Shown here piece after piece: positions 1 to 3,850 of a DNA stretch of 23,800 nucleotides. This stretch comes from a virus (taxonomy: Duplodnaviria > Heunggongvirae > Uroviricota > Caudoviricetes). The notes beneath the pieces are model-generated. The model worked only from the letters and a program-made list of their open reading frames with translations. It was not told the DNA's origin and did no database searches. The DNA lies in the IMG/VR virus record IMGVR_UViG_2663763471_000001, one strand, 5' to 3'. Every line of letters starts with the position of its first letter. The first letter of the stretch is position 1. Both the position numbers and the translations under genes were made by a program.

Positions 1-1
1 G

Positions 2-103
2 GGGCTGAATGCGCTGACGCTGACGGATATTACCAAAAATGCAACGTATGGCGTTGAGATAGAAAGTCTGGTGCTGGAGATAAATGCACCGGCATCATCA
101 TAA
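2..103 (+). CDS. 3' end of an upstream ORF (partial, unknown function)
   Basis: Open frame from the window edge to TAA at 101-103 (…GLNALTLTDITKNATYGVEIESLVLEINAPASS*). Sits where lambdoid phages carry Q or a moron upstream of the lysis genes. No recognisable motif. Confidence 0.3.
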   Translation, partial: GLNALTLTDITKNATYGVEIESLVLEINAPASS

Positions 104-187
104 AAAGTGAGCCAGTCAAATGGAAGGTATCGTTAAACTCACCGGTAGTGTCAGTGGGTCGTCTGAGATGCCTGCATGAGTTATCAG

Positions 188-218
188 AGCCATCAGTACT
201 TAACTGGTGGCTTTTTTT
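188..218 (+). terminator. Rho-independent terminator, tR'-like, upstream of the lysis genes
   Basis: 8-bp stem agccatca/tggtggct (one G-U wobble), 9-nt loop, then a run of seven T. Lies just before the holin start, the position of lambda tR' that Q antitermination reads through. Confidence 0.55.
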
Positions 219-253
219 ATTGTTGTCAGCTTCCGGATAACGGGAGACGGGGT

Positions 254-469
254 ATGTACCAGATGGAAAAAATCACAACAGGTGTGTCATACACCACGTC
301 AGCGGTGGGAACGGGCTACTGGTTCCTGCAGTTGCTGGACAGGGTTTCCCCGTCTCAGTGGGCGGCAATAGGCGTGCTGGGGAGTCTGCTGTTTGGGCTG
401 CTGACATATCTGACTAACCTGTATTTCAAAATCAGAGAGGACCGTCGTAAGGCGGCACGGGGAGAGTAA
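254..469 (+). CDS. S: Class II holin/antiholin, phage 21 S (pinholin) type, dual-start motif
   Basis: Translation [71 protein letters not shown] resembles phage 21 S as recalled from memory. In-frame ATGs at 254 and 263 give 71- and 68-aa products, the S21-71/S21-68 arrangement. Two TM segments and a charged C-terminus. The ORF-track start at 176 is rejected because it would span the terminator hairpin. Confidence 0.85.
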
Positions 470-473
470 TTCA

Positions 474-818
474 ATGACTCAAAACTATGAACTGATTGTG
501 AAAGGGATCCGCAATTTTGAGAATAAAGTTACGGTAACTTTAGCGTTACGGGACAAAAAACGCTTTGACGGTGAAATTTTTGACCTGGACATCTCGCTGG
601 ACCGTGTTGAAGGTGCCGCGCTGGAGTTTTATGAGGCAGCAGCCAGAAGGAGCATCAGACAGGTCTTCCTGGATGTTGCTGCCGGGTTATGTGAAGGGGA
701 TGAGCAGTCGCCGGAAAAGCGCCCCGTAATTTTAGAGGCGCAGGATGTGTTGATAACCTACAGAGGAAAACTACCGGGAATAATTACGGGTTCTCTGAAG
801 AGTCCGCCGAAATGGTAA
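474..818 (+). CDS. Hypothetical protein (114 aa) inserted between holin and endolysin
   Basis: ATG at 474 with SD ggagag 7 nt upstream. Charged, soluble-looking protein with no TM segment. Local GC is lower than in the flanking phage genes. Not recognised. Confidence 0.5.
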   Translation: MTQNYELIVKGIRNFENKVTVTLALRDKKRFDGEIFDLDISLDRVEGAALEFYEAAARRSIRQVFLDVAAGLCEGDEQSPEKRPVILEAQDVLITYRGKLPGIITGSLKSPPKW

Positions 819-1056
819 TTTTACCAGCATATTTTTCATCCAGTAATACAGCAAGCCGCCTGAAAGAGTCTTGTTGTTCCTGAGACCATTTGGGATTGCA
901 TGATTCAAACTGGATTGATGCCAGCGTTGATTGCATCTGTTCCCTTGGAATTGAGAATGCCAGATATGAGAAGGCGACGGTAAGGGTATTCACGTCTTCC
1001 CGAAGCCTGGAAATGCTGTCGAGCAACTCCTGTAGAGAAATGGTGTTATTGTCCAT
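784..1056 (-). CDS. Hypothetical protein (90 aa), convergent with and overlapping the 3' end of 474-818
   Basis: ATG at 1056 on the - strand with SD GAGGA 7 nt upstream. Hydrophilic, likely helical. Its 3' end overlaps the upstream + gene by 35 nt. Function unknown; coding status unverified. Confidence 0.35.
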   Translation of the reverse strand: MDNNTISLQELLDSISRLREDVNTLTVAFSYLAFSIPREQMQSTLASIQFESCNPKWSQEQQDSFRRLAVLLDEKYAGKITISADSSENP

Positions 1057-1161
1057 AAATAATCCTCATGATTGTATTGACCTGTTAGCAGCCTGAGGCA
1101 ACAGGCTGGAACTGATAAACATATCCAGGGCTCAGAAACCGATAAATCCTGATAAATATCC

Positions 1162-1695
1162 ATGAACGCAAAAATCAGATACGGCCTGTCGGCTGCCGTT
1201 CTGGCGCTGATTGCCGCTGGTGCGCCTGCGCCTGACATTCTCGACCAGTTTCTGGATGAAAAGGAAGGTAACCACACCACGGCATACCGTGATGGCGCGG
1301 GTATCTGGACCATCTGCCGCGGTGCCATCCTGGTGGATGGCAAACCTGTCGTTCCGGGCATGAAGTTGTCGAAGGAAAAATGCGACCGGGTTAACGCCAT
1401 TGAGCGTGATAAGGCGCTGGCATGGGTGGAGAAAAACATCAAAGTGCCATTGACCGAACCCCAGAAAGCGGGGATCGCGTCATTCTGTCCGTACAACATT
1501 GGTCCCGGTAAGTGTTTCCCGTCGACGTTTTACAGACGAATTAATGCAGGTGATCGCAGGGGAGCATGCGAAGCGATTCGCTGGTGGATTAAGGACGGTG
1601 GCAGAGACTGCCGTATTCGCTCAAATAACTGTTACGGTCAGGTATTCCGTCGTGACCAGGAGAGCGCGCTGGCGTGCTGGGGAATCGACAGATAA
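1162..1695 (+). CDS. R: SAR endolysin (lysozyme, T4-lysozyme/GH24 type, phage 21 R-like)
   Basis: N-terminal weakly hydrophobic Gly/Ala-rich SAR segment (YGLSAAVLALIAAGAPAP) followed by the E-X8-D-X5-T catalytic motif (EGNHTTAYRDGAGIWT). Paired with a pinholin as in phage 21. Confidence 0.9.
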   Translation: MNAKIRYGLSAAVLALIAAGAPAPDILDQFLDEKEGNHTTAYRDGAGIWTICRGAILVDGKPVVPGMKLSKEKCDRVNAIERDKALAWVEKNIKVPLTEPQKAGIASFCPYNIGPGKCFPSTFYRRINAGDRRGACEAIRWWIKDGGRDCRIRSNNCYGQVFRRDQESALACWGIDR

Positions 1696-1786
1696 GCAGA
1701 ATATTTTGCTGAAAAATGAGGTTGGCCAACGCGGGCGGATAACACGAAGTCCTGTGAACTGGCAAAACCTAAGTGAATAAAAGTAA

Positions 1787-1825
1787 AAACCCCGTTTGTT
1801 GGCAGCAAGCGGGGTTTTGTTTTTA
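1787..1825 (+). terminator. Rho-independent terminator downstream of the endolysin
   Basis: aaaccccgtttg / caagcggggttt stem (one U-G wobble), 7-nt loop, followed by tgttttta. Confidence 0.55.
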
Positions 1826-1987
1826 TGGCAGTAAGCTATGGGAGGCTGCCTTGATTGATTTTAGCAAACTGATTAGGGAGTTGCGACTCATGATTAGTCA
1901 ATTACCAAACTGGAAATTTTTGCTGGTCTGGAGCATCCCTTTTTTATGGGTAGTATCCCAGTTAATTGTGGCAATTAAGGGGTAGCT

Positions 1988-2119
1988 ATGTCAGACAAAC
2001 TCATAACGCCGGCAAAGGTCCTGTGTGTGATTGTCGGTATTTCATTTTCACTAATGCTGGTTGCTCTTTTTCTGTCCCTCGCCTGGGTGATGTTGTCTTC
2101 GTCGGGGCTGCTGGGGTGA
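1988..2119 (+). CDS. Small hydrophobic peptide (43 aa, single predicted TM)
   Basis: ATG at 1988 with SD aagggg 6 nt upstream. MSDKLITPAKVLCVIVGISFSLMLVALFLSLAWVMLSSSGLLG. Too short for the ORF track. AT-rich context between endolysin and Rz. Confidence 0.4.
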   Translation: MSDKLITPAKVLCVIVGISFSLMLVALFLSLAWVMLSSSGLLG

Positions 2120-2337
2120 CAGTGACTGATGACATCAGCAGAGCGCTGGCTTTTGCTATTAAGTGGGTGGCTGTTGGTATTGCTGTGTCTCCGATGCTGT
2201 ATGGGCTGGCAAAACTGGTCATTGCGCTGAAATCGTGAACTTTAAAAAGATGAGTGCTGAACTTATTCGGGCAATGGCATTTGCCATTCGTATTGTGGCC
2301 ATTGCTGTTCTGGTCTGGGCAATCCGTTGGTGGTGAT

Positions 2338-2832
2338 ATGAACCGTGTTCTGTGTGTGGTGATTATTGTCATGCTGGTAGCCTGTGGTGTGCTTAGTCTG
2401 GGGCTGAATCATTACCGCGATAACGCCATCACCTACAAAGCGCAGCGCGATAAAAAAGTCAGTGAGCTGAAACTGGCGAATGCCACTATTACTGACATGC
2501 AGCAGCGCCAGCGAGATGTCGCTGCGCTTGATGCCAGATACACGAAGGAATTAGCCGATGCGAGAGCTGAAAATGAAACTCTGCGCGCTGATGTTGCCGC
2601 TGGTCGTAAGCGCCTGCGGGTCAACGCCACCTGCCCCGGTACCGTGCGTGAAGCCACCGGCACCTCCAGCGTGGATAATGCAACCGGCCCCCGACTGGCA
2701 GACACCGCTGAACGGGATTATTTCATCCTCAGAGAACGGTTGATGACAATGCAGAAGCAGCTGGAAGGGGCGCAGGAATATATCCGCACTCAGTGCACTA
2801 AGCTGGCTTTTTATTATCCGGAGGATACATGA
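2338..2832 (+). CDS. Rz: i-spanin Rz
   Basis: [41 protein letters not shown]… has an N-terminal TM anchor and the [15 protein letters not shown] motif, then a coiled-coil periplasmic domain, closely resembling lambda Rz as recalled. The ORF-track start at 2254 is an upstream extension. Confidence 0.9.
2558..2743 (+). CDS. Rz1: o-spanin Rz1, embedded in the +1 frame of Rz
   Basis: Signal peptide with lipobox LVVSAC, proline-rich mature part ([32 protein letters not shown]), about 60 aa, entirely inside Rz in another frame. Alternative start ATG at 2573. Confidence 0.85.
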
Positions 2833-3044
2833 AGAAATTACGGGTAACCGTAGAACCTTTTCAGGGAACAATTCCGTTCCGTATTTTGCAGCGTGGTCGT
2901 GTTCTTGTTGAAGGTTCGTTCAGTGGTAAATGTACGCAATTACACTCCCGGACCTTTCAGGTGAATGCCACGAATGAAGAGCTAACCGTGGAGTGTACGA
3001 TGAATGCCGCTAAATGCCGCATGGTATTACAGCCAGTGTGTTGA
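2829..3044 (+). CDS. Hypothetical protein (71 aa) downstream of Rz
   Basis: ATG overlaps the Rz stop (ATGA) and has SD ggagga upstream. Position matches small genes of unknown function found after the spanins in DLP12-like prophages. Confidence 0.45.
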
Positions 3045-3242
3045 GCGACCTTATTATCCATGCGCGGTATTGTCGCCGTATTCCTGCATTAACAGAGACC
3101 GCAGCCCGACAGGGAGACTCCTCTGCGCGAGTGTGCGGGGATAATCAAAAACGATACACACCGGGGTTTACCGCGTTAACGGAGCGCGGCGTTGTCCCCT
3201 CATAGTCGCCTGTCCGGTGCGATGGTGGAAGAAACCGAACGT

Positions 3243-3443
3243 TCATTTCTCGTTATTTGTCATGCTGGCCGGGCGCAGATGCGTTGCATCTGTTGCCAGC
3301 CTTCTCCTGCAGGCTTCAATAACCCACGCTGAAAAGTTACCGGACCCTTTATGCTCAAGGGCGATGTTGATCTGTTCAATTATGTGATTGGGGAAACGGA
3401 TATTGCGGGTTGTGGTTCTGCGGGTCCGGTTTTTCGATGACAT
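3243..3443 (-). CDS. Small basic protein, possibly YlcI/DUF3950-like (ribbon-helix-helix-like)
   Basis: Start moved to the internal ATG at 3443, which has SD AAAGGA 7 nt upstream. MSSKNRTRRTTTRNIRFPNHIIEQINIALEHKGSGNFSAWVIEACRRRL… resembles, from memory, the DLP12 ylcI product that sits just before the terminase small subunit. Identity unverified. Confidence 0.5.
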   Translation of the reverse strand: MSSKNRTRRTTTRNIRFPNHIIEQINIALEHKGSGNFSAWVIEACRRRLATDATHLRPASMTNNEK

Positions 3444-3484
3444 ATTTATTTCCTTTACTGATTGCCATATGACGGGGATTTTAC

Positions 3485-3850
3485 ATGGCTGAGCTTCGTA
3501 CACTCCAGAGCAGAATCAAAACACTGAATACCCGACGGGTGAATATTCTGAAGGGGGAGCAGCGTCGTGTCAGTGGCAGTGCACGTGTTTCCCTCAAGCG
3601 TCATATCTGGCTGAGGGACGCCGGGCAGTGCTGTATCTGTGGTCGTGTGGTTGACCTCTGTGACAGTGAACTCGATCACCGAATTGCACTTCAGTTCGGT
3701 GGTGGTAATGAGGAGACGAATCTTTGGACGCTCTGTGCCGAATGCCATCGACAAAAGTCTGCTCGTGAAGCGGCGAGTGGTATGCCGGACCCGACGCTGC
3801 CGGAGGTGTCCGGAGGTAGTGGCAGAGAGGACGACATCATCGGACTGTAA
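3485..3850 (+). CDS. HNH endonuclease, packaging-associated (HK97 gp74-like)
   Basis: HNH motif with zinc-binding Cys pairs (CCICG…DHRIALQFGG…N…CAECH). Located immediately upstream of the cos-like region and terminase small subunit, as in HK97-like phages. Confidence 0.85.
   Translation: MAELRTLQSRIKTLNTRRVNILKGEQRRVSGSARVSLKRHIWLRDAGQCCICGRVVDLCDSELDHRIALQFGGGNEETNLWTLCAECHRQKSAREAASGMPDPTLPEVSGGSGREDDIIGL

Follow-up and report, generated by a model that had tools for sequence, protein, structure and literature searches.

We analyzed a window of 23,800 nt (IMG/VR virus record IMGVR_UViG_2663763471_000001), which is the late region of a lambdoid Escherichia coli prophage. Its gene order is an S21-type holin gene S (254-469), YdfR/DUF1327 (474-818), the lysozyme gene R (1162-1695), an insert of 642 bp (1696-2337), the spanin genes Rz/Rz1 (2338-2832), and then HNH and terminase genes. 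The insert carries an intrinsic terminator and four small open reading frames (ORFs) named ORF0, ORF1, ORF3, and ORF4. An initial annotation, made from the sequence alone, had noted about 640 bp between R and Rz, and this spacing was confirmed, with R ending at 1695 and Rz starting at 2338. The orthologous genes of the K-12 prophage Qin, rrrQ and rzpQ, share 4 nt, which makes the 642 bp a genuine insert. Downstream of the terminator nearly all bases are coding, and the gaps in the series ORF0/ORF1/ORF3/ORF4/Rz are 2, 2, 11, and 1 nt. That annotation had counted two or three small hydrophobic peptides; three are real, but it missed ORF0 (1851-1985), which brings the array to four genes. It had also called the insert AT-rich, which holds only mildly (GC 0.44-0.50 vs. 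0.50-0.58 in the flanks). The clearer signal is an AT skew of -0.25 to -0.31, an excess of T over A that is expected from hydrophobic coding on the + strand. The prokaryotic genome annotation pipeline (PGAP) already calls ORF1, ORF3, and ORF4 as hypothetical proteins.

The array is not restricted to this prophage. Positions 1650-2400 are 100% identical to the chromosomes of many E. coli strains, including JJ1887 and one O25b:H4 strain, and to three deposited phage records (vB_EcoS-569R3, -705R7, and -783R2). With matches to 1650-2400 at ≥80% coverage, the four-gene array is carried by 585 of 5426 complete E. coli genomes, including O25b:H4 strains and JJ1887. For comparative analysis, 175 related loci were collected from IMG/VR, GenBank phages, and public assemblies, giving 176 sequences with the window.

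ORF0 (1851-1985, + strand) encodes 44 amino acids, MIDFSKLIRELRLMISQLPNWKFLLVWSIPFLWVVSQLIVAIKG, with a basic amphipathic N-terminus and one transmembrane (TM) segment, and matches phrog_6632. By searching with the in-frame upstream sequence, we found a family whose members have 44-50 aa and occur in E. coli, Salmonella, Providencia, and Cronobacter; 28 alignment columns are invariant, and the consensus is (I/V)DFSKLIRELRLMI(S/K)QLPNWKFLLVW.IPFLWVVSQLI.AIKG. Because the codons for the conserved N-terminal part lie ahead of the ATG at 1890, ORF0 most plausibly starts at the TTG at 1851, 5 nt past the Shine-Dalgarno (SD) sequence GGAGG (1841-1845). A 70-aa ORF with a GTG start (1773-1985) was rejected because it passes through the terminator. 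Profile comparison with hhalign aligned ORF0 with the ORF3 family over the C-terminal 21-24 columns (P = 3e-4 to 1.5e-3), whereas the control comparison of ORF0 with ORF1 gave P = 0.28. ORF0 is probably a distant paralog of the ORF3 family, as judged from these profile alignments. It is certainly the positional equivalent of ORF3: locus L177 has the order terminator, ORF0, ORF1, lipoprotein gene, where other loci have terminator, ORF3, ORF1, lipoprotein gene. An invariant Met in the ORF0 family lies at the place equivalent to the second start of the ORF3 family.

ORF1 (1988-2119, + strand; 43 aa, MSDKLITPAKVLCVIVGISFSLMLVALFLSLAWVMLSSSGLLG) is present as initially described, with an ATG behind the SD sequence AAGGGG, and matches phrog_4906 (E = 4.5e-21). 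It has one TM segment, with a best 19-residue hydropathy of 2.87, and the positive-inside rule suggests an N-in/C-out topology. We identified 103 homologs, mostly of 43-44 aa. The family occurs in 276 phage records, mostly Shiga toxin (Stx) phages including those of the 933W type, and often lacks annotation there. Relatives lie upstream of Rz in nearly all Stx phages, and family members directly precede either Rz or a lipoprotein gene. One homolog, in prophage Sp10 of E. coli O157:H7 Sakai (MISDKLITLVKSLCVLVGISFLVMLVAIFFSTAWRVLTLSGLVG, about 65% identical), is XECs191, listed as a 'novel gene' by Huecker et al. 2017 (PMC5597208). In LB medium, XECs191 gave a translatome of 12.6 reads per kilobase per million mapped reads with a coverage of 0.55 and a ribosome coverage value of 0.43, above the ribosome profiling (RIBOseq) thresholds of that study, which also predicted one TM helix and an inner-membrane location (PMC5597208). 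The gene is now annotated as ECs_1966 and is directly upstream of Rz. It thus resembles ORF1 in both protein family and position. Its surroundings differ, however: in Sakai, as in other Stx phages, it follows an ant gene as the only member of the array, with ORF0, ORF3, and ORF4 all absent. An 11-nt deletion frameshifts ORF1 (ending ...LVALRLDDVVFVGDAGVRGI*) in eight loci (L146, L138, and six others), indicating that ORF1 can be lost in some prophages.

ORF3 (2122-2238, + strand) encodes 38 aa from a GTG, (M)TDDISRALAFAIKWVAVGIAVSPMLYGLAKLVIALKS, and matches phrog_1115, phrog_3246, and phrog_4493 (E = 3e-24). Elsewhere, members of its family have 48 or 60 aa and two in-frame starts 12 codons apart. 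The extension of the 60-aa form, M.KYKRILLRLT, remains conserved as protein sequence even in a Salmonella copy that has diverged. The window ORF3 is truncated: it lacks the native SD sequence and both native ATGs, and at its 5' end it is missing 10 codons compared with the 48-aa form and 22 compared with the 60-aa form. If translated at all, it would be by reinitiation 2 nt past the ORF1 stop. ATG-started forms of 38 aa occur naturally (P0169), so that the core alone may still work. Two longer readings of this region were rejected. The 51-aa ORF3 called by PGAP starts at 2083 (a CTG codon) with an N-terminus that no family member backs, and a 90-aa TTG ORF (1966-2238) overlaps ORF1 out of frame, with homology beginning only at 2122.

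ORF4 (2250-2336, + strand) encodes 28 aa and matches the same three PHROGs (E = 3.8e-6). The initial annotation had noticed a motif common to ORF3 and ORF4, and this observation was borne out: a Smith-Waterman comparison of the two gave z = 5.3, with none of 2000 shuffles reaching the score, and both carry the core RAxAFAI(K/R) followed by a TM segment. Proteins P0169 and P0192 are intermediates that link them. These matches identify ORF4 as a short ORF3 paralog. The 3' end of ORF4 (GGTGGTGA) contains the Rz ribosome-binding site, and its TGA stop lies 1 nt before the Rz ATG, as first noted. The same junction, RWW followed by the stop, 1 nt, and Rz, is found in Salmonella (L173-175). Searching the ORF3/ORF4 family profile against 1.84 billion representative proteins returned 14 clusters, all of the same family and none of them holins. 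By this measure, the ORF3/ORF4-type families are narrow and belong to enterobacterial prophages.

The insert opens with a spacer (1696-1785) and an intrinsic terminator (1786-1828), a hairpin with a T-run that forms the left boundary of the mobile module described below. The terminator proposed in the initial annotation was supported by folding: the stem (1786-1818, 15 pairs, T-run to about 1828) folds at -25.8 kcal/mol (z = -4.8), and none of 200 shuffles folded as well. It looks bidirectional, since an A-run on the 5' side gives U-runs on both strands. Spacer and terminator show 88-95% identity in related cassettes, including those of Stx phages, according to blastn alignments of 1600-1827 with L129, L007, L157, and L146 and of 1600-1790 with L005 and L006. 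A hairpin is present in every module context, with stem and loop sequences varying by context; in P27-like cassettes it lies at the same position with a different stem and loop sequence. A further terminator-like hairpin (186-214, 12 pairs plus T-run) lies between an SASA esterase gene and the holin gene S, so the late operon appears to be punctuated by terminators at module boundaries.

We next consider whether the peptides themselves are maintained. The ratio of nonsynonymous to synonymous polymorphism (pN/pS) in the called frame was 0.39-0.41 for ORF1 (26 or 29 sequences), 0.21 for the ORF3 core (27 sequences), and 0.38 for ORF4 (7 sequences), in each case below the other two + frames. Variable sites of the ORF3 core were distributed 10/1/18 over codon positions 1/2/3, and six nucleotide variants of the ORF3 N-terminus, all synonymous, encode MKNGLELKAP. 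Replacements are conservative hydrophobic ones, and polar or small residues are invariant. The ORF families are under purifying selection and their length is kept. An antisense ORF of 123 aa lies over ORF1 (2001-2372, - strand); pN/pS by itself cannot rule it out, and it was rejected as the usual stop-free shadow of hydrophobic codons, which module rearrangements elsewhere would break. The status of ORF1 as a gene therefore also rests on its ATG and SD sequence, its 43-44 aa length, and shuffling at ORF boundaries.

All four peptides, of 28-44 aa, contain one 19-residue hydrophobic segment (mean hydropathy 1.9-2.9) followed by at most 14 residues. A spanin-like role was rejected on geometry, the periplasmic tails being too short. 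Pfam, NCBIfam, and PADLOC gave no match for the four peptides, and Rfam gave none for the insert RNA; the PHROGs matches are all to families of 'unknown function'. A full-text literature search by peptide sequences and accession numbers found no paper, and the Sakai homolog surfaced only in the supplements of PMC5597208. The earlier suggestion of membrane-active peptides stands insofar as these are genuine, conserved genes for single-pass membrane proteins. Holin-modulating, toxin-like, and exclusion functions are still the right hypothesis space.

The purifying selection also bears on the idea that the peptides are inert, the ORFs serving as translated leaders that relay ribosomes to Rz once insertions had parted it from R, with the truncated ORF3 and the short ORF4 being decaying remnants of recombination. 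This idea would account for the loss of the native ORF3 start at a recombination junction, for the shortness of the paralog ORF4 and the use of its last codons as the Rz ribosome-binding site, and for the frameshifted ORF1 in eight loci and the existence of module-free cassettes. However, the amino-acid sequences themselves are under selection, Rz has its own SD sequence, and in 39 loci the module is kept ahead of a different gene, one for a lipoprotein. We regard inert leaders as quite unlikely.

The initial annotation had alternatively proposed degenerate duplicates of an Rz-type TM anchor, and an extended version would derive ORF1 from the Rz anchor and ORF3 from the second TM domain of the S21 pinholin. 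By eye, KVLCVIV..MLVA does resemble RVLCVVI..MLVA, and KWVAVGIAVS likewise resembles a 10-residue stretch; ORF3 and S21 aligned with z = 3.7 (p = 0.006). In addition, a 554-nt contig in ENA encodes a chimera, P0181, whose N-terminal part is that of the S21 holin (through ...SPSQW) and whose C-terminal part, VAVGVAVSPMLYGLAKLVIALKS, is that of ORF3; this reflects either true recombination at a brief stretch of similarity or an artefact of assembly. Like the Rz anchor, the peptides have a single hydrophobic segment of the N-in/C-out type encoded in an adjacent gene, but they have no periplasmic coiled-coil domain and cannot bridge the periplasm. Chance alignment comes easily to hydrophobic segments, and further comparisons failed to support common descent. 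ORF1 against the Rz N-terminus gave a Smith-Waterman p of 0.04-0.065, the ORF1 family against Rz an hhalign P of 0.14 (probability 0.4%), ORF3 against the Rz N-terminus z = -0.7, and the ORF3 family against S21 an hhalign P of 0.029 (probability 1.7%). PF04971 gave no match even at E ≤ 10, and the profile search of 1.84 billion proteins returned only the 14 family members. The families are independently conserved and also occur without Rz. The duplication idea is thus largely refuted and, of all the explanations considered, has the least to recommend it.

The comparison of loci revealed that the genes travel as a module of roughly 0.4 kb, made of the terminator, an ORF0/ORF3-type gene, and an ORF1-type gene. 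In canonical form, the ORF0/ORF3-type protein has a basic amphipathic N-terminus, one TM segment, and a conserved internal Met, and the ORF1-type protein has one TM segment with an invariant small-xxx-small motif. The module is shared between unrelated cassettes: L007 (R, ORF3, ORF1, Rz; 1615-1996) and L088, an unrelated cassette (2423-2807), are 83.6% identical across a block that begins within the 3' half of the terminator and extends as far as the ATG of the gene that follows.

The arrangements are diverse. The window type, S-(YdfR)-R-ORF0-ORF1-ORF3-ORF4-Rz, accounts for 80 rows (the window and 79 loci, partial contigs included), and S-(YdfR)-R-ORF3-ORF1-Rz for about 39 loci. A further 39 loci have Phage_holin_8, Phage_holin_3_7, GH108, ORF3, ORF1, and a gene for a 60-aa lipoprotein. 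R-ORF3-ORF4-Rz occurs in one locus (L129), and R-ant-ORF1-Rz in Stx phages (L005, L006). Salmonella contributes an HP1-type holin, lysozyme, ORF3, and Rz (L169) and a remnant in which an ORF3-like gene lies 1 nt ahead of Rz (L173-175), while an M15 peptidase gene precedes ORF0 and ORF1 in L177 and a CHAP-domain protein gene precedes ORF0 in Providencia (L178). Thus five endolysin types are found upstream (GH24 signal-anchor-release (SAR) lysozyme, GH108, M15_4 peptidase, CHAP-domain protein, and the Salmonella Phage_lysozyme with its HP1-type holin), together with three holin families, or four if the DUF7940 holin-like gene of L127 is counted. Downstream there are always genes directed at the outer membrane, either Rz/Rz1 or a small lipoprotein gene, the families also being present in cassettes without Rz. 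Across the 176 sequences the module stands beside lysis genes, or else, in two Salmonella cases, within prophage remnants. One of these (L173-175) has it directly upstream of Rz; in the other, two tandem ORF3-like genes lie between SASA esterase and DUF1353 genes (L171, 3856-4168; L172, 165-528) with no holin, endolysin, or Rz left nearby.

Two further small families were observed in these cassettes. P27-like cassettes (Phage_holin_8 and Phage_holin_3_7 with a GH108 or M15 endolysin) have no Rz/Rz1 and end in a conserved lipoprotein of 60-62 aa (phrog_7528, MKRKHWTHRMPRTAAKWALVAILVPFFLVGC..., mature part about 29 aa), located at 2804-2986 in L088, 3058-3246 in L176 (phiP27, NC_003356), and 2764-2961 in L179. 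The phiP27 annotation omits it in favor of an overlapping ORF in a different frame. This lipoprotein might serve in lysis as a non-canonical outer-membrane factor or, alternatively, in exclusion. An extra single-TM family of 49-65 aa (...AKIIAVCRGVRHILTPVAWVLCTAMVAYTMIYLKG), without a Pfam or PHROG match, lies between endolysin and ORF3-type genes in L127 (2682-2831) and L179 (2307-2504).

Comparing the R-Rz junction among relatives, as the initial annotation had advised, confirmed the insert through Qin and additionally brought out two things it had missed, the N-terminal truncation of ORF3 and a composite of two alleles. The window and L129 have the same layout up to 1827 and from 2120 onward, with breakpoints at 1827/1828 and 2119/2120. 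Between these, 88 nt of L129, comprising the ORF3 leader and first codons, are replaced in the window by 292 nt with ORF0-ORF1. The alignment thus shows that an ORF3-ORF4 allele had its leader and initial codons replaced by an ORF0-ORF1 allele, making the four-gene array a composite of two module alleles.

Antirepressor-type genes occupy the same spot in other phages: Ant in Stx phages (L005/L006, 1769-2343) and a different, 231-aa ant-like protein in L003 (PhiR5_1, 1790-2485). Each overlaps the start of the following small ORF by 4 nt and has eliminated the ORF0/ORF3-type gene, either entirely or in its N-terminal part.

How the array is expressed was addressed with promoter scans. Using a simple consensus, we found no sigma-70-like site on the + strand in 1-3600 at 9/12 matches and none in 1690-2340 at 8/12. 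A TATAAA in the ORF3 leader was rejected as a promoter because it has no usable -35 element and lies within probable coding sequence. With no + strand promoter and a position behind the terminator, the array would be transcribed only when Q-modified polymerase reads through. The ORF4/Rz junction, with the Rz ribosome-binding site inside ORF4, is conserved between E. coli and Salmonella. Together, the array is probably expressed from the Q-antiterminated late transcript and coupled to Rz.

On the - strand, a promoter-like site (1994->1965, CTGACA-18-CACAAT, extended TG, 9/12 positions) faces the bidirectional terminator and could start a transcript of about 170 nt that is antisense to ORF0. At least ORF0 might then be a type I toxin controlled by this RNA. 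The small size and hydrophobicity of the peptides, the - strand site, and the terminator U-runs on both strands would fit such a system, and there is a precedent in hokW-sokW, a prophage toxin that aids phage release (PMC8621323). HokW of Sp5 is also a small hydrophobic inner-membrane prophage peptide with a possible positive effect on lysis (PMC8621323), but the array peptides show no match to Hok/Gef or any other toxin family in Pfam or NCBIfam, and the insert none in Rfam. Moreover, the site matches at only 9/12 positions within sequence constrained by ORF0 and ORF1 codons, and the antisense RNA would fold unremarkably (z = -1.2); no convincing antisense RNA emerges. No equivalent site was seen in L088, the sole ORF3-type module inspected, by eye and without a scan. 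Finally, the genes form a co-directional operon with the spanin genes. A type I toxin is therefore very improbable.

In a broader alternative, the genes would be lysogenic-conversion morons that the prophage expresses to the benefit of the lysogen, for example through superinfection exclusion, defence, or membrane-stress tolerance, with the lysis cassette being merely a tolerated site. Morons are reportedly well described in lambdoid phages, and many known exclusion proteins are small inner-membrane proteins. The insert resembles a moron in being an extra module between genes adjacent in relatives, with sharp mosaic boundaries, a bounding terminator as morons often have, and a GC content slightly below the flanks. 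The site is an insertion hot spot, as the ant gene of Stx phages and the 231-aa ant-like gene of PhiR5_1 indicate, and uninduced cultures showed RNA-seq and RIBOseq signal for the Sakai homolog (PMC5597208). This signal is low, however, and compatible with spontaneous induction. In contrast to a moron, the insert has no promoter-like site of its own between terminator and genes in our consensus scans, and its terminator lies upstream of the genes with none downstream, ORF4 abutting Rz. The genes are translationally packed onto Rz, a gene necessarily silent in lysogens, and gave no PADLOC match. Furthermore, morons scatter, whereas the module is confined to one niche, the endolysin-spanin junction, in five cassette types. 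We consider a moron unlikely, though a better candidate than inert leaders.

We tentatively favor another explanation, to which we give somewhat less than even credence: the array proteins are non-essential accessory lysis factors of the inner membrane that tune membrane permeabilization or lysis timing, or aid envelope disruption in some other way. The strongest clue is their constant niche across cassettes; with their tight coupling and lack of a promoter of their own, it points to late-made inner-membrane proteins that act independently of particular partners. The module would be transcribed together with S, R, and Rz/Rz1 once Q-modified RNA polymerase passes the terminator, and would be translated serially across the gaps of 2, 2, 11, and 1 nt into Rz. 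The proteins would build up in the inner membrane late in infection, where the invariant small-xxx-small helix faces suggest that they probably oligomerize. Their action would not depend on the type of holin, endolysin, or spanin, and they would not be toxins or exclusion factors of the lysogen. The contiguity of R and Rz in Qin and the eight loci with a frameshifted ORF1 imply that the module is non-essential; we take R and Rz to be contiguous in phage 21 and lambda as well.

Several points weigh against accessory lysis factors. The link of these proteins to lysis is one of placement. Since the R-Rz junction also hosts ant, the synteny could reflect a permissive insertion site combined with late co-expression. 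For genes that should be co-expressed with R, a terminator 5' of the module is an odd arrangement, and weak or non-sigma-70 promoters would escape the consensus scans. The RIBOseq signal of XECs191 is low and comes from uninduced cultures. Within the array, the window ORF3 may be a decaying remnant whose start signals have been lost, and ORF4 has a poor SD sequence. As for selection, one antisense frame of ORF1 has an equally low pN/pS (0.44), and the pN/pS pairs are non-independent and come from short, recombining sequences.

A more specific form of the accessory-factor explanation is possible but distinctly more doubtful. Here, the terminator and two-microprotein module would be a partner-independent inner-membrane device, widely shared in enterobacterial phage lysis, that sets or sharpens the time of envelope disruption. 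Such a device might lower the membrane potential needed for holin triggering, or might license the spanin or lipoprotein step. The ORF0/ORF3-type partner would possibly be made as long and short forms from its dual start.

Known lysis proteins offer partial parallels. P2 LysA is reportedly encoded between the endolysin gene K and the spanin genes lysB/lysC and is said to affect lysis timing. Like LysA and antiholins, the array proteins would be non-essential membrane proteins expressed late, and LysA shares the endolysin-spanin placement; as in the accessory lysis class generally, the array genes are co-oriented within the lysis cassette and encode membrane proteins. However, the peptides have no sequence similarity to LysA, which is larger and multi-spanning. 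The S21 pinholin/antiholin pair reportedly arises from a dual start, and like the array peptides it has small, Gly-, Ala-, and Ser-rich helices. Two potential in-frame starts lie 12-13 codons apart in the ORF0 and ORF3 families, and the longer form would have more positive charges, which is reminiscent of holin/antiholin pairs. The internal Met is preceded by an SD-like sequence; the window ORF3 has lost both starts. Unlike S21, which has two TM segments, the array peptides have one, are encoded downstream of the endolysin gene, and show no significant homology to it.

The product of S (254-469, + strand) is an S21-type class II holin (pinholin) with a MYQM dual start (Pfam PF04971, E = 9e-33; PGAP 'class II holin'). 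The GH24 lysozyme R (1162-1695, + strand; PF00959, E = 9e-24; phrog_7, endolysin) has a hydrophobic SAR-like N-terminal segment, MNAKIRYGLSAAVLALIAAGA. The right neighbor of the insert is the i-spanin gene Rz (2338-2832, + strand; PF03245, E = 4e-51; phrog_13), within which the ORF list and sequence inspection place the o-spanin gene Rz1 in the +1 frame (2558-2743, + strand; lipobox LVVSAC). Rz has 164 aa in this prophage and 155 aa in L129. Two other ORFs were observed nearby. A PGAP-annotated - strand ORF of 90 aa (784-1056) lies opposite the 3' end of ydfR together with the spacer between S and R; it matches phrog_2411 over the full length (E = 1e-58) and is a conserved opposite-strand gene within the lysis cassette. 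A 71-aa ORF (2829-3044) overlaps the Rz stop (ATGA) and covers only positions 100-165 of the 291-position phrog_2571; it is possibly a fragment of a larger gene.

The existence of these ORFs is not new: annotations already list them as hypothetical proteins, and RIBOseq picked out one family member in 2017. What this analysis adds is a fourth gene, the relations among the families, a mobile module that is linked to a terminator and keeps one niche in unrelated cassettes, and the composite origin of the array. Lambdoid lysis cassettes are usually regarded as fully resolved into holin/antiholin, endolysin, and spanins, and conserved, selected microprotein genes are now found inside them. The terminator-linked module shows how such genes spread between unrelated cassettes, and the array provides a compact, genetically tractable test case for phage microproteins. 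If the proteins do tune lysis, burst size, Shiga-toxin release, and prophage-mediated killing would be affected; if they are instead active in the lysogen, they would represent a new class of small membrane conversion factors.

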